A stretch of DNA of 64,000 nucleotides from Carcharhinus amblyrhynchos (GCA_965287045.1 OZ336870.1:164176001-164240000), one strand, 5' to 3'; shown: positions 5,262 through 58,974, numbered from the stretch's first letter. Program-made: numbers and translations. The notes: generated by a model from the letters alone, not told the origin.

Positions 5262-5339
5262 GAACAGTTTAGCAAACAGAAGGGCTACCTAGAGGAGGAG
5301 CTGGATTACAGGAAGCAGTCGCTGGACCATGCCTATATG
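5262..5339 (+). CDS. JAKMIP1: JAKMIP-family internal coding exon (EQFSKQKGYLEEELDYRKQSLDHAYM)
   Basis: Acceptor tcttttaccag|GAA, donor ATG|gtagga, 78 nt, phase 0/0. Peptide matches the conserved JAKMIP1/2/3 QKGYLEEELDYRKQ block. Paralog assignment to JAKMIP1 is inferred (RQSRE motif, terminal LWP, downstream C4orf50-like gene) and less certain than the family call. Confidence 0.9.
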
Positions 5340-10974: not shown

Positions 10975-11178
10975 CAAATTCAGGAGCTGGAAGCCACCCT
11001 GTACAACACTTTGCAGCAGTGCCCTGGAAACAAAGTGAGTGAATCTCTGACGGAGGTGCAGAAGGAAGAGCTGAAGCTGGCAGTCGAGAAGTGGCGACGC
11101 CAGGTCCTGAGGCAGAGCCGGGAGTACGATGGTCAGATTTTACAGGAGCGTTTGGAACTGTTGCAACATGCACATCAG
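10975..11178 (+). CDS. JAKMIP1: JAKMIP-family coding exon (QIQELEATLYNTLQQ...QERLELLQHAHQ)
   Basis: Acceptor ctctcctcctcag|CAA, donor CAG|gtatta, 204 nt (68 codons), phase 0/0. Matches the JAKMIP C-terminal coiled coil. Confidence 0.92.
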
Positions 11179-15750: not shown

Positions 15751-16700
15751 TAAGAACATAAGAAATAAGAACATAACATAAGAACATAAGAAATAGGAGC
15801 AGGAGTAGGCCATCTAGCCCTTCGAGCCTGCCTCGCCATTCAATAAGATCATGGCTGATCTGTCATGGCTCAGTTCCACATTCCCGCCCTTTCCCCATAA
15901 CCCTTAATCCCCTCGCTTATCAAAAACCCATCAACCCGTGTCTTAAAAATATTTAGCGAGGCAGCCTCCACCACTTCAACGGGCAGAGAATTCCAGAGAT
16001 TCACCACCCTTTGAGTGAAGAAGTTCCTCCTCAACTCCGTTCTAAACCGCCCCCCCTTTATCTTGAGGCTGTGCCCCCTAGTCCTACTATCCTTTCTGAG
16101 CGGGAAGAGTCTCTCCACCTCTATCCTATCCATCCCATTCATCATCTTATACGTCTCAATGAGATCTCCCCTCATTCTTCTAAACTCTAACGAGTACAAG
16201 CCTAATTTATTCAGCCTCTCCTCATAGCTCAACCCCCTCAACTCCGGCATCAGCCTAGTAAAACTCCTCTGCACTCCCTCCAAGGCCAAAATATCCTTGC
16301 GTAAGTACGGCGCCCAAAACTGCACACAGTACTCCAGCTGCGGCCTCACCAATGCCCTATACAGCCGCAGCAAGACCTCCCTACTTTTATATTCAATCCC
16401 CCTTGCTATGAAGGCCAGCATCCCATTCGCCTTCCTGACCACCTGTTGCACCTGCAAGCTGGGTTTTTGTGACTCATGCACAAGGACCCCGAGGTCCCTC
16501 TGCACCATTGCCTGCTGCAGTTTTTCTCCACGTAAGTAATAATCCTTCCTACCATTATTCCTACCAAAGTGGACCACCTCGCACTTGCCAACATTAAATT
16601 CCATTTGCCAGTTCCTGGCCCATTCGCCCAGCCTATCTAGATCCTTCTGCAGACTCTCCAAACCCTCCGCACAATTTGCCGTTCCTCCAATCTTGGTGTC
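15751..16700 (-). mobile_element. Young 5'-truncated CR1/HER1 LINE with an uninterrupted 263-aa ORF2 C-terminus
   Basis: ORF 15870..16661 (LQKDLDRL..WQMEFNVGKC..VRPQLEYCVQFW..FFTQRVVNLWNSLP); tandem (ttcttatg)n tail at 15751-15795. Confidence 0.92.
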
Positions 16701-16815
16701 TATTTAAATCCTATTAAAATACAGTGATTCAAAGGAGTTATCTAGTGCCCCAGCTCCATGGGGACGTTTGGGTTGTTAGAGAGCCTTGTAACAGAGAGGG
16801 AACATGTTCCAGCTA

Positions 16816-37469: not shown

Positions 37470-38380
37470 TCTGTGCACATAAGCTTCCTGGTCTGGAGGC
37501 ACACTGGGAGCCTGTGTCTGCTCAAACAAAATGACCATTCAGCGAGAGGTGTGCAGGTGCTGAGGAGACATACCGTCTGGGATAGACTGGTTGCTTTCGC
37601 AGGCACCAATGCACCTCCCCCCCCCCGCCACCCCTTGAAAGGAGAGAAAAAGGGACTCTTCCAAAAGTAAATGCTGCTGGCATCTTTTATTTGAGTTTAT
37701 TTCACATGTCCTTGGCACAAGAATGTTCACCCCGAAGGAGAAAGCAAAAGCTCCCGACGCTATCGCCACTTGAGAGTCATCTGTACTTGTTTTAACACTT
37801 GAGTAGTCAGTAGCTAAGCAGCTGCTGAGACTATTGGCCTTTGTCCTCGCCCAGATTAGCAACTGAGCTTTTAATCTCCGTTTATTGGAACACTGCAACG
37901 ATTCTGGGAACTGTATTGTTGCCTTTACATACCTGCTTCTCCCTGAGTAGCTGTGTTTTTAACTGAGTGGGTATCACTGCTTATTATTAATTAAGCAGTC
38001 CACATAAAGGTTATTTTAAGCAAAGCATTGAAGAACTATGGAATATTTTGGGGAGTTGATTGTAGCATCTTTCTGAAAGCTTACTGGAAAATGATTGTAG
38101 GTTGCTTTGAAAACAGAACTGCACCCCCTAGCTTGCAGAGTAAGAACAGGATCTTTTTAAATTGCCCGATAACTCATCGGCAAGAAAATTGCCAATTACT
38201 CAACAAACTAATTTAGAAATAAAACTAGAAAGCTTTAACGTTACTGTGTAGGTTTGAGTGCACAACACATTGTTCCCCGCAATGAAACAGAAACCATCTA
38301 TGCTTATTACTGCTTTCCATTTGCACATTACAGGATGTGTTTGGTTATTCTCTAACAATCTGTGGTTTGTTCCCCCGCAG

Positions 38381-38446
38381 AGAATTAAAGAATTGGAAGA
38401 CAAGATAGAAATTCAAAAAAGACAAATCAAAGAGATAGAAGAAAAG
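38381..38446 (+). CDS. JAKMIP1: JAKMIP-family coding exon (RIKELEDKIEIQKRQIKEIEEK)
   Basis: Acceptor ttcccccgcag|AGA, donor AAG|gtgaga, 66 nt, phase 0/0. Follows a ~27.2 kb intron. Confidence 0.92.
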
Positions 38447-38719
38447 GTGAGAGCTAACAGTCGAATTGACAATTTTTATTATAAAATTAATTGCATGTTT
38501 TTATGTATTTTAAATTAATTGTGAATAGACCAGTAACAATAAACACTTGAAAATATTGTCAATTTATAGTATTGCAGATAAGTGCGTTTATTTACGTACA
38601 TTATTAGACTTTGATCTGGTGCTAACATTTCTCTCTTCTTTAAACCTCTCCTTGCTCCTCTCTTTTTCTCCTGCTCCCACTTGTCTCCTTTACTTTCTGT
38701 TGGATTTTTATGTTTCCAG

Positions 38720-38770
38720 TTTTTGTTTCTATTTCTGTTTTTCTCTTTAGCTTTTATCCTCTGGCCCTGA
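38720..38770 (+). CDS. JAKMIP1: JAKMIP last coding exon, C-terminal transmembrane tail anchor FLFLFLFFSLAFILWP*
   Basis: Acceptor tgtttccag|TTT, TGA at 38768-38770. Peptide is the characteristic JAKMIP terminus. The exon probably extends to the donor ag|gttagt after 38792. Confidence 0.93.
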   Translation, partial: FLFLFLFFSLAFILWP

Positions 38771-40848
38771 CGGCCAATCTGCTGAAGCACAGGTTAGTGG
38801 GCGATACTTACTACCTGATTGTACCTGATCCCTAAGGGGACTTGCTGGGCCGTACTGAGTCAGTCTGTACTAGAAGAATGACCCTCTTATGAAGTTGATG
38901 TCCCTGATTGCTCTTAGCACTGAATGTCCTGAGCCCTGAATGAGATTTTAAGCACTTTTTAGATGGCGAGATATTCAACTGAACATCAAGTACCCTTTGT
39001 AAAAGGTGATTAAATATTCCTACTGAGCATTAAAACTGATCAGCTAAAATGGTTTGATCCAGGACAAACTTGTTGCATTGTTCAATCTCATGCAATCTCA
39101 TCCATTACGTGAGGGGTGGATCATGGAAAGGCCTGTTGACCTCGGGCAGGATTTTTCAGTTTCGGGATGAGCGAGGCTGTAAACTCTCACCCATTAGAAA
39201 GTGGGTGATTTTACCCATTTAGGTTAGAAAATGAGTGATATTAAAAGATGTGTCTCAGCTTGGTTTTGAATGATAAGAAATCTTTTTCAATCAAATGAGC
39301 CATAAATATGGGGCTGGATTCTATAACCCTTCCCTGCCAGGTGTGTTTTAGGTGCGGCGGTGGGGGACACCATGTTCCCGCTCAACAGAATCCCCATAAT
39401 AGGGGGCCGCCACTGAAAAAACATGGGCAACGACCTTATTACCAATTAATCCTATTTCACACTACGCACGTCATAAGAGCTTTGGCATGGGCAGCTGGGT
39501 GAGAAGTCCACTTTTGAAAGAGGCTTTGGAATCACAGGAAGGAAGGGAGCAACGTGTTTGGAGGCGTGGGGGGGTGTGCCCATTGCACATTGGGGGCAGC
39601 CCCCCCCCTTTGTTCCTCCCCACCTGACCTTTAAGATCCAGCCCTTTACCCCTCCCTCACCTCTCCCTCCAACTCCCCTTTAGCTGATATGGCTCTGGGA
39701 CCTACTGATGTTCTTCCTGGACCTCATCGCAGTGCCCGCTACTCGGTTCTGGTGCTGCTGAAACTACTGGAGCTGTTGGCCAATTGGATTGGCTGGCAGC
39801 TCTGGGGGGAGTGGGATTTCCTCCCACCGAGGGGCAGATGTCCCACTCTCAGTTGAATATTCCAGTGCAATATTGCGCTGGGGCGAACTTTTGTTTTTGG
39901 GTCCATCGGCTACCAACCAACTCTTAGAACAGGGGGTAGAGCAATACGAATCCTGCTGTCCCACCACCTGTGAAATTCTACCCATAGATTATTTTCTTGA
40001 ATAACGTAGCATGCAGGGGTTATTTAAATGCAGAGCTAATGTACATTTAAGGATTTGTCCAATGTGAAAACTTTCTCTTCGATTGTAACTGCAACATCAG
40101 CAGGCTGTGCAAGGGTGTTAAAAAATTTAATACTGGGACCAAGTCCTCAACACAGTGCACATTTTCTTTGATGTTGACTGAAGGCAGTGCATCTGAGTGC
40201 CCTGCCGTGCAGGAGCAGGACATTTCATTAACGTATTTTAATTGTGCTCCCACACGGTGTAAAGTGCTGTATTAGTTTCCCAGAGATTGGGCAATCCAGC
40301 AGTGAATGGAAGATGGGACCCTGCTAGCTCCATGAGGCGAGTGCTTTTTCCAGCACTCCTTGTGGGCCAAGAGGAACTTGACTGCTTCCCTCAGTCCCTC
40401 ATGGCAGCTTGTGGCCTCCCCATCGTGATTTCTCTCTTCCACTCTGCCCCTTTATCCACCTCCCTATTGTTGAAGGCTGTCAGTAAGCGATTTGGCTGGC
40501 TGCCTGCGAGGCAATTAAACTAGAAAATGTTTTATGCTCGCTGGACCTCCCTGTTCCCAGCCTTGTTGGTTTCTTTCACCTTCCCAATACCCTCATTTTT
40601 GTCACAGGCGTGTAGTGTTTAGGGTTTCTTGATAACCGAGCCATTTTCTGGCAAGTTAAATGAAGCCTGTCATTGATTATAAATAATCAGCTCCTTTGAT
40701 ATTTATTATGGGGCATGTTCAATATTGTATTAATCTATAGATAAATATATGGAATCTCAACTTAATGTACTTTTAATTCTCGAGTGAGTAGCAGAATTTG
40801 CAGCCAACTCTAACTAGGCCTTTGCTTTTAGAGGCCAAATAAAAATTA

Positions 40849-41083
40849 GGCGGCATGGTGGCGAAGCGGTTAGCATTGCTGCCTCACTGCGCCAGGGACC
40901 TGGGTTCAATTCTTGGCTTGGGCCACTGTCACTGTGGAATCTACACACTCTCCCCATGTCTGCGTGGGTTTCCTCGGGGTGCTACAGTTTCCTCCCACAG
41001 TCTGAAAGATGTGCTGGTTAGGCACATTGGATATGCTAAATTTTTCCTCAGTGTACCCAAACAGGCACCGGAGTGTGGTGACC
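40849..41083 (+). mobile_element. V-SINE type B, 3'-truncated
   Basis: Head, V-domain and aaacaggcaccggagtgtggtgac, then stops. Confidence 0.8.
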
Positions 41084-41659
41084 CAGAGGAAACCCAAAGG
41101 ACTCCCCCCCACCCCCACCCCACCCCTGATTGGCTGCTGGTAACCCCAATAGGGTTTGTTTGGTGCATTTCTGGAGACACAGGAGACCCATAAAAGTATC
41201 TTTTGATCCCTGAGCCACCATTACATCCTGGTAGGCTTGGAAATAATTGGATTTAAGTAGGCCAGTTCCTTTCCTGTTGCCAGTGGATGAGTGCCTATGT
41301 TAGCCCCTTCCTGCTGCTAACTAAATCTGGAACAAATTCCTGCTCCCTGGAGAATCCGAGTGATTCTCCAGGCCCGGCAGCCATCTTATTCACTCAGTAA
41401 ATTCTGCTCAATATCTGTGAGCATTCCCATGGTTAAATAGCTTCAACTTAAGTACCACTTATGAAGAATAAGAACATGTGAAGAGCAATGCAGCATGAGT
41501 TAGTGTCATTAGTAGGTGTGGAGAAGGAAAGTTAATAAACTTGGGCTGTAAAGTTAATACTGAGTAGAAAAATGCCCATGTGGCTTTATAAGAGTACAAG
41601 ATTTAACCTCTATTTAATAATCCTTTCATCTGCAATTTTTACATTATCTTTATCATTAG

Positions 41660-41965
41660 ACTGCAGGAGAGCTCACAGAAGATAAAACTAAGCGGACAGA
41701 GCAAATTTCAAAGTGTACAAAGCAAAATGCATACATTGACGTGGAGGCATTGACCAAATTCCAAGCTTCTACAAAGGACAAACCAGAACACAAGGAGAAA
41801 ATAGACCCACGTGCACATGTTATGTCCACATTGGAAGATGCCATTCAAAACTTTCCAATATTTATCTACTTACTGAGGAGGAAGATCTTCCTGACGACAA
41901 TTTGATTTTAAACGATCTAGGAATTGGACAAAAATTTTAATAAAATATATATATATATACACCTG
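41660..41965 (+). other. Candidate terminal (3'UTR or alternative C-terminal) exon of the JAKMIP gene
   Basis: Pyrimidine-rich acceptor atctttatcattag|ACT at 41659/41660, 81 open codons to TGA at 41903-41905, and AATAAA at 41939-41944. Confidence 0.5.
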
Positions 41966-41977
41966 AATGATTTAGAA

Positions 41978-44266
41978 ATGATGGGGAGCAAACTTATAAA
42001 AGTGCAGAGCGATAAGGGGAACGGGCAAGATGGTGAAGATAACAGCAGGATGCAATTAAAGGAGCCACACATTTCTGAGGAACCACACACAGAACCGATG
42101 ACTCCCACAGAACCGAAGGGAGGAGCACATTTGGAGTCTCTTCTGGGGGAGACGGCAGATTTAAATAACCAGACCTTAGCAGAGCAACTCATACAATTAA
42201 AGGAAGAAAACAAACACAGTGGTGGCAGGATAGCAGAACTTGAAGATCATATTTTAAAATTACAGAACTTGCACAGCTCGGCAGAGCCGGGGCTCAGGGA
42301 AAACGTGGACAATCAGCAGATTTTGGAAGATAAATTGAGGGAGTACGAGAGGGAGTCTGTGGCTTTAAGGAAAAAGTTGAATGAGATGGAGCTTTCGTAT
42401 CATCGACTTCAATTCGAATGTGATGCCCTCAAAGGCAGACTGGCCTCAGTGAGGGAACTGGACTCACTGGAGTCTCGTAGCAGCGATGAGGAGGCTGAAA
42501 GCAAACCGGGTGCCAAAACAGAGCTGCTCCAGAGCCTCAGAAATCTAGAAGGGCTGCTAAAGATCAAGGAGATGAGCGAGAAGGAGCTGACGGACACGGT
42601 GGAAGAACTCCGAGGGCAACTGCTGCAAAACCAGGAGGCTCAGAGGCTGCTGAGCTCACGCTGTGCCAAGCTGGATCAGTTGACGAAGCAGAAGGAGGAG
42701 GTGGAAAGGCGGCTGGAGGAGAGGTACGGCCAAGTCGAGCAGCTGCAGAAGGAGAAGGAGAGCTCGGAGGAAGAGTACCAGGAGCATGTCAAAATGTTGC
42801 TGGAAGAGATCAGACAGCGGGACGAAGCCCACTCCCAACTCGAGGCAATCAACAAGGAGCTGCTCCACAGAATGGGGGAGGCGGACGAGGCCAGAGAGGG
42901 CCTCGAATCGAAGATTGCCAAACTGAGGATGGACTTGGAAGAGAGGGTGGAGAGCGAGTTAAAATTTAAGAAGCAATGTGCGGATCTGGAAAAGACCGTG
43001 CGGGATTGGGAAGATCTTGAGCAGCAGCTGAACGAGCAGTTTAAACAGGTGGAAAGGAAGCAAACTGGCAAGATTAAAAGTCTTCGCAAACAGTTGGAAG
43101 AAAAAGATGACGCCCTGCAGAAGACTTTGCAGGCGCTGGAAGAACTCAAGGAGGGCATCAGGGAGGCAGAGAAGGGCCTCCAGGAAAGGCAGCAACTTAC
43201 TCCAGAGATTCTCGAGGAAAAGAGGCAGCTGGAGGCAGAGTTGAGCAGAATGGTGGAGGCCGAAGTGGACAAGGCTGGCTTGATTGTGAAGATGAGGAGC
43301 AGGTTCGAAACGGAGCTGAACGACAAGAGCAAAGAGCTGGAAGACTTGAAGGATGAAGTGGAAAGGTGGGAGGACGAGGTCACCCGACTGCAGGAGCAAC
43401 AGAGGCAGCAAGAAGAAGTCAACAGGAAGCTGCTGGAGAGAAACAGGATGCTAGAAGAGATGGCGGGAGATCTGCAGCAAGGGGAGACCAAGATGCTGCA
43501 GGAAAAGATCGCCCGCATGGAGAAGCTCATCAGCATGAAAGAAGAGACGGAGGAGAAGCACCAGGCCAGGATCTCCAAGCAGGAGTCCTTGCTGAAAGAA
43601 ATGGAGGAGACCCAAAGGAGGTTGGCGCAGCGCAACGAAGAAATGGGCACCAGGCAGCGCGGGATGAGTGAGGAGATTCACCGCTGGAAAACCAAATGCT
43701 CTCACCTCGAGAAAGTGGAAAGAGAAGTGAAATTTGAAGCCAAGTGCCAGCGAGATAGGATTAAAGAGTTGGAAGTTGCGAAAACCACCTTGGAAGGGCA
43801 ACTTCAGAGGAAGATCAGCGAGTTTGATGAGCTGGGCTCTTTGAAGAAGAAGGAACTGGCAAGTGTGACGGCGGAGCTCAACAGCAAGATTGAAGAGCTG
43901 GAGCTCAAAGAGTCTGCCTGTCAGGCAGCCAAGCACAGCCTGGAAACGCAGCTGAAAAAAAGGATGAAAGAGTTTGACGTTTCTGAGGCGAACGTGAAGA
44001 GCCTTCGGAGGAAACTTGAGGAGGCCTTGGAGGAGAAGCAATGCGAGATCAGGAAGGTTGAAAGCAGTATGCGGCAGGAGAAGGCGGCGCTGGAAGCTCA
44101 GCTTGTTGAAGAGTCTCAGTTAGTCATGTCTCTGCAGGCCGCGGTTAAAGAGGGATGCCAGCTCTCCCACACGTTGAAGGGAGAGTTGCACAGTAAAGAG
44201 GCAGCTCTAAGACTGTTGCAAGAGGAGCACACCATGCTGCTGGAGAGGATTCAAGCTTTGGAACAG
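41978..44266 (+). CDS. Giant exon of an uncharacterised long coiled-coil protein (C4orf50-like by position); start uncertain
   Basis: Stop-free E/K/L/Q-rich heptad ORF, repeat-free and more GC-rich than its flanks. First in-frame ATGs at 41978 and 41981; donor CAG|gtaggt after 44266, phase 0. Confidence 0.85.
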
Positions 44267-44365
44267 GTAGGTGTGACATTCCCTGGGATTGCGAGGGCAG
44301 TGACATATCCTGGGAGGGGGTCGGTAACTTGAGTCAGACTTTGAATCTGACTGGTTTCCAATTTC

Positions 44366-44756
44366 TAGAGTAGAATCGCTACAGTGCAAAAGGAGGTAAT
44401 TTGGCCCATCAAGTCTGCACCAAGTCTCTGCCAGCGTATCTTACACTGTCCTGCCCCTAAAACCCCACACATTTTCCAATCCACCTAACCTACACATTTG
44501 GGACATTAAGGGACATTTTTGTTTACCATGGCCAATCCACCTAACCTTCACATCTTGGGACACTAAGTAACAATTTAGCATGGCCAGTTCACCTAACAGG
44601 CACATCTTTGTGCTGTGGGAGGAAACCCATGCAGTCACAGGGAGAATGTGCAAACTCTATACAGTCACCCGAGGCCGGGTCCTGGGTCCCTGGGTCAACC
44701 TGCGTCCCTGGTGCTGTGAGGCAGTAGTGCTAACCACTATGCCACTGTGCTGCCCT
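44366..44756 (-). mobile_element. HE1-type V-SINE with internal tandem duplications
   Basis: ccaatccacctaacc...gggaca unit repeated; starts 100 nt after the giant-exon donor. Confidence 0.85.
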
Positions 44757-45796
44757 AAATTTTGCGCAGAGGAGTGTGCTTGCATTCGTGGATGCTTCTT
44801 AACTCCGCTGACTTCACGCTTTGTGCAACCTATGGTTCATTTGTGAAGGGGTTCACCCATGTCCGTTCCAGTGGAACTGGTGTCAGCCTGGGTTCCGAGG
44901 TCAGGGTCCTGAAGACCCCCAAATTAGAGAGAATTTATCTTAAGTGAAAAGCAGAATAGTGCAGACTCTGGTAATCTGAAAAAGCTGGAAATAGTCAGAA
45001 GGCGATGGCAGCATCTGTGGAGACAAACAGTGTTGATGTTACAGATCTGTTCACTTTAATCAGAACTGGAAAAGTTAGAGATATAACAGTATTTGAGCAA
45101 AGGGTGGGTGGGACTTCAGCCTGCCACTCCGATATCTTCTATCGGGACTCCATTTTTTCTAGGACAATTTAATTTTCCGTCAATTAGCATCTTATCCCTG
45201 CAAAGGCTTCTTTATTGGCCTCTGACAGATAAACTTTGACCTTCTTACAAGAATCTGTGAAACTGCGAGCTTGGCTTCATTGTGTTAAAATAAAGTCAAC
45301 AACATTCATTGAGGATTTATCCAAATTTGCACTAAGTTCTTACTTTACACAAGAACAGTCAAACTGAATCGGGGCACCATTGTCTTCTAACTTGTTTTCG
45401 TCCTAAAGTACAAACTCTGTGGTTATAAATGTTAAGACAGGTGTTGAAATAATGAATTTAATAAGTTTCTTCAGCAAGTGTTTCTGTAGCACTGTTTACA
45501 TGAATGTTTTAAATTGAATTAATTAGCATTTGACTTCATTGCGTGTAAACCCTGCACGCAGATGCCATCTGTGTTAGCCACGACAATTTTTTGTTGCTGT
45601 ATTTTACACTACTTGACACCAGCTGTACCAACTTTATATATCTTCACCAAACCAATTAAACATTAACGTACTTGTCACCATCAATGTCAGAAAGGTGTGA
45701 AAATATATTATGGGTGTCAGCCATGGCTCTTGCCTGAGTCAGCAGGTTGTGTTGTCAAGTCCTGCAGTACAGCACAACATCTAGGCTATTACTCAT

Positions 45797-46077
45797 TGAA
45801 TCCCTGCAGGGCAGAAGAGGCCATTTGGCCCATTGAGTCTGCACTGACTCTGACAAAGTATCTTACCCAGGCTCTCTTCCCCCTGCCCCATCCCTGTAAC
45901 CCCATGCACTTACCATGGCTAATCCACCTAATCCACACATCTTGGGGCAATTTAGCATGGCCAATCCACCCGACCTGCACATTTTTGGACTGTGGGAGGA
46001 GACCAGAGCACACGGAGGAAACCAATGCAGCACAGTGAGAACATGCAAATTCCACACACCCGGGTCCCTGGCCACTG
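45797..46077 (-). mobile_element. HE1-type V-SINE
   Basis: Tail and V-domain, shortened head. Confidence 0.8.
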
Positions 46078-46394
46078 TAACATCCTTAAGAGTAATGCTA
46101 TGGGAGTATTGCATTTTCAGAGTTTACATTGTATAGATGAGCTATTAAACTGAGTCCTGCCCACCCTTTCCTACAGTATGGCTACTGTTTGGGGATCTGT
46201 ACACTGCTCTTAACAATGTCTTCCTTCTTTTGCTGTTTTTAACCTCCAACCAAATAGGCTCAACATCATCTGAGCCTACATCATCCGCTATTTATTCTTC
46301 TTACAAGAAAATCCCCTCACTGACATTTGTCTTTTTCAAAAATACAGTGCAAAGTTCATGTTTATCTGGCAACAGAAGATGAGAGGTTAAGCAC

Positions 46395-46835
46395 AACACC
46401 AACAGAAAATGCTGGAAAAACTCAGCAGGTCTGACAGCATCTGCAGAGAGAGAATACAGCCAATGTTTCAAGTCAGGATGACCCTTCGTCGGAGCTCTTA
46501 TAGTGCATGGGAAGCACTGCTTCACCTGAAAAGAGTGTTTGGGACCAGAGATAGTGAGCAGGGAGGGGGTGAAGGGGCGGGTGTTGCACCTTCTACGATT
46601 GCATGGGAAGGTGTTGTGGGCAGAGGGTGAGGTGTTGGGTGTGATGGTGGAGTGGATCAGAATGTCCCAGAGAGAACGGTCTCTGCAGAATGTGGACAGG
46701 GGGAGTGAGGGCAAGATGTGTCGAGTGGTGGCATCATGCTGGAGTTGGTGGAAATGGTGGACAATGATCCTTTGAATGCGGAGACAGGTGGAGTGAAAAG
46801 TGAGGATGAAGGAGGACTCTATCCTGGTCCTGGGA
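46395..46835 (-). mobile_element. Penelope-like retroelement fragment (RT to GIY-YIG linker plus terminal repeat)
   Basis: ORF 46301..46714 contains FCRDRSLWDILIHS...TFPCNRRRCNT...GPKHSFQVKQCFPCT, typical of the Penelope Cys-rich linker; degenerate hammerhead at ~46458-46496. Confidence 0.75.
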
Positions 46836-47653
46836 GGGAGTTTCAGATTACAGCACCCACAGTATCTTGCCTTTATCCAGGAGGTTCAGCACATTCATCC
46901 TCAAAACCAAAAGGAAGTGTCAGTTGTAACCTTCAGCCTGAGACCAGACAATGAAGATCCATGTTTTGTTTGTGCAATCAATGAAAATAGATTATCAATA
47001 GTATTATGCCAATATTTGTAGTCAGCCCTTGTATTTGGAGTCTTATCGTACAAAACATTACACAAAAGATCAAGAAGGACTTTAAAATCATTGAAATTCT
47101 TTGTCACAAAAACCTGGGTCAGAGAAACATTTTCATTTTTGTAAGACTTAGTTTTAAAGGTTGGCTACTCAGTGTTCCCCCATAGGACTGAGACAACATT
47201 GGAAGCACTTTGTGTGTGAATCTAATGCGAAGGTATCCTGATGCGATGCCATTGTTGCAGTTCTTTGGAGCTGTAACATTAGAGTGTTCCATCAATATTA
47301 CATGGCCACTTTGTCCAATGGAACTAACAGTAAGGTCCTTTTATCATGAATAAATAAATGACTCTTCACCGTATTGTGGAGATACTATTCGAGCAGCTGG
47401 TCACTGCAATTAACCCAACAGAGACTGTCTCAATGTGAAAATATCTATTCCATCTGAAGACTGAAGTATTTTCAGTAGTGCGACATTTCTTGGGTTCACT
47501 TGGCCCCAGTGAAAGACAGCATTGTTTTATCTTCGTATGGATTCCCTGGATGATAAAGTGAAGGAGATTAGTTATCATATTATCTCACCCAGAAAAGATG
47601 GAATGGATGTGCTGAACTTTAATGTAACCATTGGTACCTCCTGGCAATTGCAG

Positions 47654-47820
47654 GATCTGGAGGAGGCAAAGAACGAAGGGTCAAGACACAATGAGTGGGC
47701 GACCAATAAGCGTGAAATCAATGTCCTTGACCAGAGATTGGAGGAGTTCGCACAGTCTGAGAAGACCCTCAAACAAGCCATTGACAACTCCAGGAAGACA
47801 GAAGCTGCTTTACAAAGAAG
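47654..47820 (+). CDS. Coiled-coil gene exon (DLEEAKNEG...KTEAALQR)
   Basis: Acceptor aattgcag|GAT, donor AAG|gtaagg, 167 nt, phase 0/2, coiled-coil composition. Confidence 0.82.
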
Positions 47821-52365: not shown

Positions 52366-52513
52366 AATTCAAGAGTTGGAACTGTCAGAACAAAGGCTCC
52401 TGGATAAAATCAATGAGTTAACTTCCAAATCACAGCAATCATTGGCCAGCGATCCACAACTGACAGGAAAGCTTCGAAATCTGCAAATTTCTGAGAGAGG
52501 TCTTAGAATTACG
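52366..52513 (+). CDS. Coiled-coil gene exon (IQELELSEQRLLDKINEL...ERGLRIT)
   Basis: Acceptor tttctttatag|A completes the AG+A Arg codon from the previous exon; donor ACG|gtaaag; 148 nt, phase 2/0. Confidence 0.82.
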
Positions 52514-52900
52514 GTAAAGTTCATTTTAAACCCTCGTCTTCCTCTATGCTTGCTCCTGTGAAGTCTCTGTCTTTAATTGTCTTTAATTGTCAATTATCCA
52601 ATCCTTCACCCATATGATGATTCTCTATTGTTGGGGAATAGATCATAAGGATTTTGCATTGATGGTAGAACGGGGTAAGGAGTAGGTAGCCCATCGAGTC
52701 AGTCCCAAACAGTTATGGACACCACAGTCCCCATTCAGCAGCACCCCCTCCCCACCCCAACGCAACCACAGCAGCAGAATCAGCACTCTGCTGGAAAAGG
52801 TTTTAAAAACTCTGGACTAAATTTTGAAAGAAAATGTCTTTGGAAATTTGTCTGTGATGTCCAAAGGTGATTCACTAAATTTCAACAGAAAACTGGGAAA

Positions 52901-58254: not shown

Positions 58255-58974
58255 CTGACTGAAAAGGAGAAATTGGAAGAGGTGCTGAAGGGGAAACTCT
58301 GGCGTTTGCAGAACCATCTGAAGATGAAGGAGGATGAGATGAAGAAGCAATCCGAGTACTTTGAACACTACAAGCAGAAGCAGCAACAGCAAACGATGAA
58401 ACTGCGGGAACGGGAACAGTCACTGCACAGCCAGATTTTCAAGCTGGACAGAGAGAGGATCGACCTGAATGCTACCAGCGTTGTCTTGAGAACGGAGCTG
58501 CAGGAGGTAACGGCAAAATTCGCAAAGCTGGAAAAGGCTCACGCCAAACGGAGGAAAGATCGTTCAGAGCACGAGACGGAACTTGCCAACATGGAAAATT
58601 CCCTGTCCGAGAGGGAGGACCAAATCAAAGACAGTATTCTGGTGCTTCAACATGACCTGAAGAAGCTCTTGGAGAAGGACGAGGCCGCGAACCGGGAGAA
58701 GGAACAGCTCCGTGAAAGACTTCAGCAAGCGGAAGATAATGAAGACTTCCTCGCACACAAGCTGGAAGACTTCCGCTCACGGATCCATGAGCTGAAGCTA
58801 TCGGAGAGCAGCCTGCAAGAGCAAGCGGAGGAACTGGAAGAGGAGAATGAGAAGCTCAGAAGAGAACTTAAAGAAGCGCAGGAGAATGAAAGCTATCTGA
58901 AAGAAGTGCTGGAAGAGAAAGAAAAGCTGGAGAGTTTAGTAGAGGAGAAGAATCGAGTACATAATCTGACATTG
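58255..58974 (+). CDS. Coiled-coil gene exon (LTEKEKLEEVLK...EEKNRVHNLTL), 240 codons
   Basis: Acceptor ttcttccttacaag|CTG, donor TTG|gtaagt, 720 nt, phase 0/0, inside ORF 58219..59046. Confidence 0.85.

Follow-up and report, generated by a model that had tools for sequence, protein, structure and literature searches.

Bicistronic mRNAs whose first stop codon can be bypassed by alternative splicing, giving a fusion protein, are known from MOCS1, an enzyme pair of bacterial operon origin. Two open reading frames (ORFs) on one spliced RNA are also carried by CERS1(LASS1)-GDF1, MFRP-C1QTNF5, SNURF-SNRPN and MTPN-LUZP6; in LASS1-GDF1 all exon junctions fall within the two coding sequences, and a layout with no exon junction between the ORFs has been proposed for decay-immune bicistronic mRNAs (PMC3951408, text available in part). 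In PALM2-AKAP2, the upstream gene ends in a membrane-anchoring exon and is tightly linked to a downstream gene; alternative splicing can pass over the anchor and continue into that gene (PMC3405040, text available in part). An internal acceptor in the hydrophobic-region exon of rat JAKMIP3/NECC2 produces a longer isoform with a different, anchor-less C-terminus (915 versus 844 aa), detected by RT-PCR (PMC3765260, text available in part). The RIM-binding proteins RIMBP2, TSPOAP1 and RIMBP3 combine an N-terminal coiled coil that is weakly JAKMIP-like (~26 bits) with C-terminal SH3 and Ig_RIMBP2 domains.

The locus analysed here lies in a 64,000-nucleotide stretch of the genome of the shark Carcharhinus amblyrhynchos (GCA_965287045.1, OZ336870.1:164176001-164240000), referred to below as the window. 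Each of its ingredients has precedent, namely anchor-less JAKMIP isoforms, bicistronic mRNAs and read-through of the PALM2-AKAP2 kind; the bypass splice known in MOCS1 is only predicted in the shark. As in rat NECC2, the shark isoforms differ in length (907 versus 828 aa), and given this precedent the anchor-less JAKMIP1 C-terminus is of a known kind. In contrast to NECC2, the shark exon is not terminal, but continues into a 763-codon ORF and is spliced to a multi-exon gene. The shark contigs carry two ORFs per spliced RNA, with exon junctions placed as in LASS1-GDF1; unlike the mammalian examples, both ORFs are long (~890 codons for JAKMIP1 and ~2450 for C4orf50, judged by orthologs) and are apparently halves of one ancestral protein, and the RNA is known from contigs. 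The layout of PALM2-AKAP2, with its bypassed anchor and linked downstream gene, is shared, whereas in the shark the observed splice runs into a stop without producing a fusion, outgroups have the fused form, and the downstream gene is found at only one of three paralogs. The RIM-binding proteins have three SH3 domains, two or three FN3 domains and RIMB1_N; the domains of the JAKMIP-C4orf50 line are JAKMIP_CC3, DUF4527 and a single Ig, and both trees described below place this line on a separate branch.

A single shared exon holds the stop of soluble JAKMIP1 and the start of C4orf50. We consider it reasonably probable that the two genes are halves of a RIMBP-like ancestor, that they are still transcribed as one two-ORF RNA, and that C4orf50 is made from it by re-initiation. 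In the literature searched, which leaves most subscription journals and supplements outside, no account was found of JAKMIP1-C4orf50 read-through, of a shared exon or of a common origin.

The exon shared by JAKMIP1 and C4orf50

The upstream gene is the microtubule-linked JAKMIP1: over its last three common exons, 105-115 of 115 residues are identical to six shark and ray proteins, and exons coding for JAKMIP_CC3 (PF16034) lie 22-35 kb upstream of the window. The features of the locus are listed in Table 1. Between the 204-nt and 66-nt exons lies a 27 kb intron (11179-38380), where the paralogs have introns of ~7 kb and 3.4 kb. A sequence-only reading of this DNA had noted an acceptor opening in the frame of the giant downstream ORF and running 81 codons to a TGA at 41903, and this was confirmed (acceptor AG at 41658-59). 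A search with the 81 codons returned 7 proteins of 22 candidates, all of them JAKMIP isoforms, from 5 species; on this similarity, the frame corresponds to the annotated JAKMIP1 C-terminus that lacks the membrane anchor. The position of TGA 41903 is the end of five of the seven matches (two Scyliorhinus species and Heterodontus). The Pristis JAKMIP1 isoform ends two residues on, at the position of TAA 41909; in Chiloscyllium punctatum the isoform shifts frame and has its end where TGA 41874 lies, as does that of Stegostoma; and the C. plagiosum model shifts frame at an earlier point. The first 45 residues of the 81-codon part are identical at 33-39 of 45 positions, a higher share than the 58-72 of 100 at the beginning of the giant ORF. 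Within the 81 codons, substitutions among close relatives are too few to measure selection.

JAKMIP1 possesses both a tail-anchor exon and the anchor-less alternative C-terminus. The 41660 exon can be entered either by skipping the tail-anchor exon or through the internal acceptor at 38751. The tail-anchor exon is near-identical in all three JAKMIP paralogs of the genome, with a stop and a donor shortly after; the internal AG is present in JAKMIP1 and in the JAKMIP3-like paralog (L016, G000:C17), and absent in the third copy (L010, G000:C13). The tail-anchor exon has no contig cover in sequencing runs X6, X13 and X15, an absence given no weight because a filter can drop such records.

No run is recorded as RNA; X6, X13 and X15 were taken as RNA on account of their spliced joints and of unique intron bins without cover. 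The RNA runs examined numbered four, X6 from one study, X13 and X15 from another, and X18. A contig joining 38446 to 41660 is found in three of the four (X6, X13 and X15); these contigs align to 38378-38444 and then from 41658, with no extra letters, the offset being due to a shared AG. The contig of X6 runs to 42346 with 0 gaps and that of X13 to 42362 with 6 gap letters, both passing through the stop, the AATAAA and the ATG. In X15 the contig ends at 41927 and the next begins at 41973, across the AATAAA and the TA repeat; this break could reflect low depth, the repeat or cleavage. X18 contributes pieces from 42086 only, with no junction-crossing contig among the rows listed. A narrow alignment in which X6 cover appeared only from 42317 has no meaning, as the wider alignment shows the spliced contig. 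In the X13 contig, the 417 letters upstream equal the next four JAKMIP1 exons (204+78+69+66) exactly, a match by length only. The splice from 44266 to 47654 is present in the X6 and X13 contigs.

With RNA contigs of these runs spliced in at 41660 and out at 44266, the interval is one exon with two ORFs. The ORFs do not overlap and lie on continuous spliced RNA sequence, with the stop at 41903 and the ATG at 41978 in the same exon and no exon junction between them; in the RNA contigs there is no intergenic gap between JAKMIP1 and C4orf50. Contigs are not molecules, and overlapping transcripts could give the same contig. Poly(A) read-through, which the sequence-only reading had offered as one way of reaching the downstream ORF, is supported by the X6 and X13 contigs, which cross the AATAAA.

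Table 1. Features of the JAKMIP1-C4orf50 locus, in window coordinates.
Feature	Position	Strand	Basis
JAKMIP1 coding exon, 78 nt, phase 0/0	5262..5339	+	tblastn with shark JAKMIP1; splice sites
JAKMIP1 coding exon, 204 nt	10975..11178	+	94-100% identity to shark JAKMIP1 proteins; splice sites
JAKMIP1 last common coding exon, 66 nt, phase-0 donor	38381..38446	+	tblastn; joined to 41660 in RNA contigs of X6, X13, X15
JAKMIP1 tail-anchor (hydrophobic) exon, with stop and donor	38720..38792	+	both forms annotated in other sharks; exon kept in both paralogs of the genome
Internal acceptor in tail-anchor exon, giving a 42-nt in-frame piece without anchor	38751	+	
Single 2607-nt exon: JAKMIP1 ORF end, spacer, C4orf50 ORF start	41660..44266	+	RNA contigs; splice sites
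JAKMIP1 alternative C-terminus without membrane anchor, 81 codons + TGA	41660..41905	+	71-84% identity to annotated JAKMIP1 isoforms, 5 species
72-nt spacer	41906..41977	+	crossed by X6 and X13 RNA contigs
Spacer content: in-frame stops; AATAAA; short TA repeat; 2-codon ORF	41909, 41918; 41939-44;; 41967-75		
C4orf50 first coding part, 763 codons, coiled coil	41978..44266	+	63-75% identity to 14 elasmobranch proteins starting there
C4orf50 next exon, phase-0 acceptor; in-frame splice from 38446 possible	47654..47820	+	RNA contigs, homologs, phases
C4orf50 exon, end approximate	52366..52516	+	tblastn
C4orf50 exon, bounds from tblastn	58255..58974	+	

The giant ORF represents the first coding exon of C4orf50. 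The Met pair at 41978/41981 is the start of all 14 elasmobranch proteins (of 17 matches) and of 36 of 42 further cluster members, the other six being fragments, chimaera or sturgeon; the chimaera protein begins ten residues earlier. A JAKMIP extension is absent from all C4orf50 proteins compared, which are gene models. The ATG at 41981 has an A at -3 and a G at +4, a strong context. C4orf50 lies next to JAKMIP1, and its orthologs carry DUF4527, SH3 and Ig_RIMBP2 after a long coiled coil; they have two SH3 stretches, one Ig and no RIMB1_N, which places them outside the RIM-binding family proper. In the shark, the exons for DUF4527, SH3 and Ig_RIMBP2 continue in order for ~58 kb past the window, and DUF4527 matches one locus only in the genome. 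RefSeq numbers JAKMIP1 and C4orf50 as separate genes in several sharks. A Scyliorhinus torazame isoform numbering that seemed to span both genes was dropped as evidence; C. punctatum shows separate series.

Co-expression of neighbouring genes can arise without shared transcripts. In human, JAKMIP1 is the top co-expressed gene of C4orf50 (r=0.642), and the available part of the same paper makes no mention of read-through (PMC13657826). No mention of human C4orf50 RefSeq transcripts that share JAKMIP1 exons was found among the papers listed.

Repeated SINE-like elements at 40850-41100, 44350-44760, 45800-46050 and 46400-46600 drew thousands of RNA contigs. A Pfam scan of the ORFs in the window gave nothing above the cut-off; a 277-codon open frame at 15870-16703 on the minus strand has a weak RVT_1 match (E 0.097) and is likely a decayed LINE piece.

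Single-chain relatives and the putative gene fission

A search for long JAKMIP1 relatives gave 13 matches: six vertebrate models from outside RefSeq that combine JAKMIP_CC3 with DUF4527, five RIMBPs of abalone, the protein P0082, and Acanthaster XP_022111213. No shark fusion was among them, a weak negative in a crowded search. XP_022111213 is a starfish RefSeq protein of 4335 aa with 3 isoforms. JAKMIP motifs extend across its N-terminal 600 residues (segment scores of 91, 91 and 32 bits), with no Pfam call of JAKMIP_CC3. The DUF4527 block gives 62 bits, and the C-end reaches 142 bits with the C4orf50 Ig-SH3 profile, compared with 60 bits for an abalone RIMBP. The starfish N-end was searched against 1.84 billion representatives, and 21 proteins from the best 150 of 239 matches were scanned. 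Among these 21, P0104, P0105, P0112 and P0118 (3046-3890 aa) combine JAKMIP_CC3 with Ig_RIMBP2 and SH3, and three of the four match the DUF block. P0082 carries JAKMIP_CC3 and Ig_RIMBP2; at 2029 aa it is encoded on a contig of 6781 nt, with little space for introns, and its best match in the ESM Atlas is a DUF4527/Ig_RIMBP2 cluster at 0.92, with recognition below the threshold, and is a lead only. P0119, with Ig and SH3 but no CC3 match, was not counted as fused, and neither were the rest of the 21 scanned, of which five are long with weak CC3 only and the others are RIMBPs or plain JAKMIPs. Five long proteins (P0173, P0182, P0199, P0215 and P0247; 1065-2116 aa) have a JAKMIP-like N-end or a weak JAKMIP_CC3, and no Ig or SH3; these are possibly independent losses or fragments.

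In a tree of the N-terminal part with the RIMBPs as outgroup, the fused proteins group with vertebrate JAKMIPs (100/99) and the vertebrate clade is supported at 100/100; the tree gives no firm order among the fused rows, two of which are on long branches. In the corresponding tree of the C-terminal part, the fused proteins group with C4orf50 (99/95). From the tree we infer that P0104, P0105, P0112, P0118 and P0082 are invertebrate, Acanthaster being the one of the six fused proteins whose taxon is known. In the fused proteins both parts occur in one chain, in the same order, each grouping with its vertebrate counterpart, as is expected of a gene fission. The RIM-binding proteins, with a related N-end and an SH3/Ig C-end in one chain, make a fission in the vertebrate line the simplest account. 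On these comparisons, JAKMIP1 and C4orf50 are likely halves of one ancestral gene that was split in the vertebrate line. A split ancestral fusion was one of the three explanations in the sequence-only reading; it draws its support from these outgroup proteins, not from the two 1-nt shifts noted there. Weak similarity to the JAKMIP N-terminal coiled coil is also seen in the RIM-binding proteins P0083-P0087, P0179 and P0224, and suggests that the RIMBP and JAKMIP families share an origin. Neither JAKMIP nor C4orf50 occurs in the available part of a paper on Rimbp evolution (PMC7565545).

Neither the junction peptide nor the giant exon could be matched to the fused proteins, so that the break point cannot be placed there; matches to the giant exon came from cartilaginous fish, sturgeon and tarpon alone. 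The tail-anchor segment is absent from the two fused proteins checked. Since the anchor exon occurs in all three paralogs and is absent from these two, and DUF4527 is confined to one locus, the anchor exon likely predates the duplications, and only JAKMIP1 likely kept the downstream half after the duplication that gave JAKMIP1/2/3. The ancestral state would have been a fused JAKMIP-C4orf50 chain, to which the tail-anchor exon would have given a new JAKMIP end before that duplication.

The human orphan C4orf50 would in this way gain an identity and a testable role, as the SH3/Ig-bearing tail of an ancestral JAKMIP scaffold and kin of the presynaptic RIM-binding proteins, and its regulation is predicted to be shared with the neuronal gene JAKMIP1, itself a subject of autism research (bioRxiv 10.1101/2025.10.21.683757, text available in part). 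The locus may represent a gene fission caught with its transcription unit likely still intact.

Routes to the C4orf50 product

In the reading that we favour, the splice choice made after 38446 would set the product. Inclusion of the full tail-anchor exon would give membrane-anchored JAKMIP1. Skipping it (a skip seen in the RNA contigs), or using the internal acceptor, would give soluble JAKMIP1 ending at 41903, with the RNA continuing into C4orf50. Skipping of 41660-44266, by a splice from 38446 to 47654, would give an in-frame fusion, as predicted from the phases. Past the stop, a ribosome would meet the weak 2-codon ORF at 41967, then the ATG at 41978 and then that at 41981 in its strong context, and C4orf50 would be made by re-initiation on the shared RNA. 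On the RNA seen, the stop at 41903 lies 2361 nt before the next exon junction; so distant a stop would expose the RNA to decay, except where translation of the second ORF leaves no junction between the two. Should both long ORFs be translated from a single mRNA, sharks and rays would conserve an instance of re-initiation past a long ORF, something rare in cellular genes.

When the first ORF is as long as ~890 codons, re-initiation is generally inefficient. TGGGA is a re-initiation motif of the calicivirus type, and none occurs in 41600-42000. Five ATGs precede 41978 within the exon. A more ambitious version of the account, which is possible and which we hold tentatively, has a RIMBP-like scaffold of 3000-4300 aa, with the vertebrate JAKMIP family and C4orf50 as its two halves, kept whole in invertebrates and cut within one exon in sharks, a conserved two-ORF mRNA with re-initiation after the ~890-codon ORF, and a splice switch among three products.

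The same anatomy and the same split could be combined with a different source of C4orf50, namely shorter transcripts from a promoter inside JAKMIP1, in a late intron or in 41660-41977, the read-through RNA being a by-product or an overlap of transcripts; we regard this as a serious rival, though the less likely of the two. It would require ordinary scanning and no special mechanism, and the X13 contig does start exactly at a JAKMIP1 exon start, as it would at an alternative upstream or first exon branch; however, the rows listed include neither a loose end nor a second joint at 41660 or within the exon, and a start in the late JAKMIP1 exons would still carry a long upstream ORF and the five ATGs. 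The TA run at 41946-59 is TATA-like, but a start 25-30 nt past it leaves almost no leader, and the repeat is not seen in the chimaera peptide upstream of the Met. The DNA near the stop is similar in carpet sharks despite their shifted frame, which hints at a non-coding role. No CpG island is found in 38000-45000 (observed/expected at most 0.62).

It is improbable that the main link between the genes is instead a spliced fusion protein, in which the in-frame joint of 38446 to 47654, both phase 0, rebuilds the ancestral JAKMIP-to-SH3 chain and the two-ORF exon is a fish-specific cassette. The narrow taxonomic range of the giant exon given above would fit such a cassette, and the arrangement would be comparable to PALM2-AKAP2 (PMC3405040, in its available part). 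The six vertebrate models that hold JAKMIP_CC3 and DUF4527 in one chain also point this way, and those of turtle and godwit pass from the last common JAKMIP1 exon into the homolog of the 47654 exon; but all six are predictions, joined at different places, and the search that found them contained, for what a crowded search is worth, no shark counterpart. The 38446-47654 joint is absent among the RNA pieces listed, whose contigs are unbranched over both observed splices.

Stops, frames and homopolymer runs at the junction

The remaining explanation in the sequence-only reading was that homopolymer errors in the assembly hide a continuous fusion frame. Of that reading as a whole, the split and the read-through are supported, while this part was refuted. 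DNA contigs from X3 (the possible source sample) and X4 (another sample of that study) and from X5 (another study), among 7 of 22 sequencing runs examined overall, span 41300-42700 with 0 gaps in all three cases. The repeat at 41934-67 was skipped in the contig alignment, and the second homopolymer run is partly covered and the first fully; since the first is free of gaps, the stop stays even with the second only partly covered. Other sharks contradict the idea as well, with the JAKMIP1 stop and the C4orf50 Met at matching positions.

The elements from which the continuous frame had been drawn were found in the sequence: a shifted frame open from 41851 as far as TAA 41938, the homopolymer runs caaaa and aaaaatttt, and the AATAAA at 41939-44, 33 nt before ATG 41978. 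The two stops that follow TGA 41903 in frame (TAA 41909 and TAG 41918) had been missed, and the giant ORF counted from stop to stop begins at 41921. The compensating 1-nt shifts do bridge the frames, but not beyond chance: with the three stops fixed, the other codons shuffled, and homopolymer runs of at least 4 allowed, a bridge was obtained in 1333 of 5000 shuffles. The frame common to the acceptor and the giant ORF, together with the 72-nt spacer, lies within one spliced exon. Two other candidate acceptors were ruled out, one at 41921 in the giant-ORF frame, where the G is an A in X4, X5, X6, X13 and X15, and one at 41976, whose phase is wrong.

That assembly errors, or two programmed 1-nt frameshifts, conceal a continuous ORF from 41660 to 44266 is extremely unlikely: frames bridgeable at two homopolymer runs and an acidic-looking shifted frame open for 66 codons speak for it, but the gap-free DNA contigs and the shuffles speak against it, a canonical slippery heptamer is absent at 41846-50, and in Stegostoma and Chiloscyllium the frame shifts sooner, with a stop at the TGA 41874 position and the C4orf50 start unchanged, so that neither an in-frame slippery heptamer nor frames conserved across species, as in programmed ribosomal frameshifting, are found.

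Within 41740-41940, the 66 open codons of the shifted frame end in an acidic stretch. This open frame could be a relic of the frame before the split; chance suffices to explain it, and no fused protein matched the region. A TA repeat occupies 41946-41959, between the AATAAA and the ATG, and the 6 gap letters of the X13 contig over the exon are probably a length variant at this repeat.
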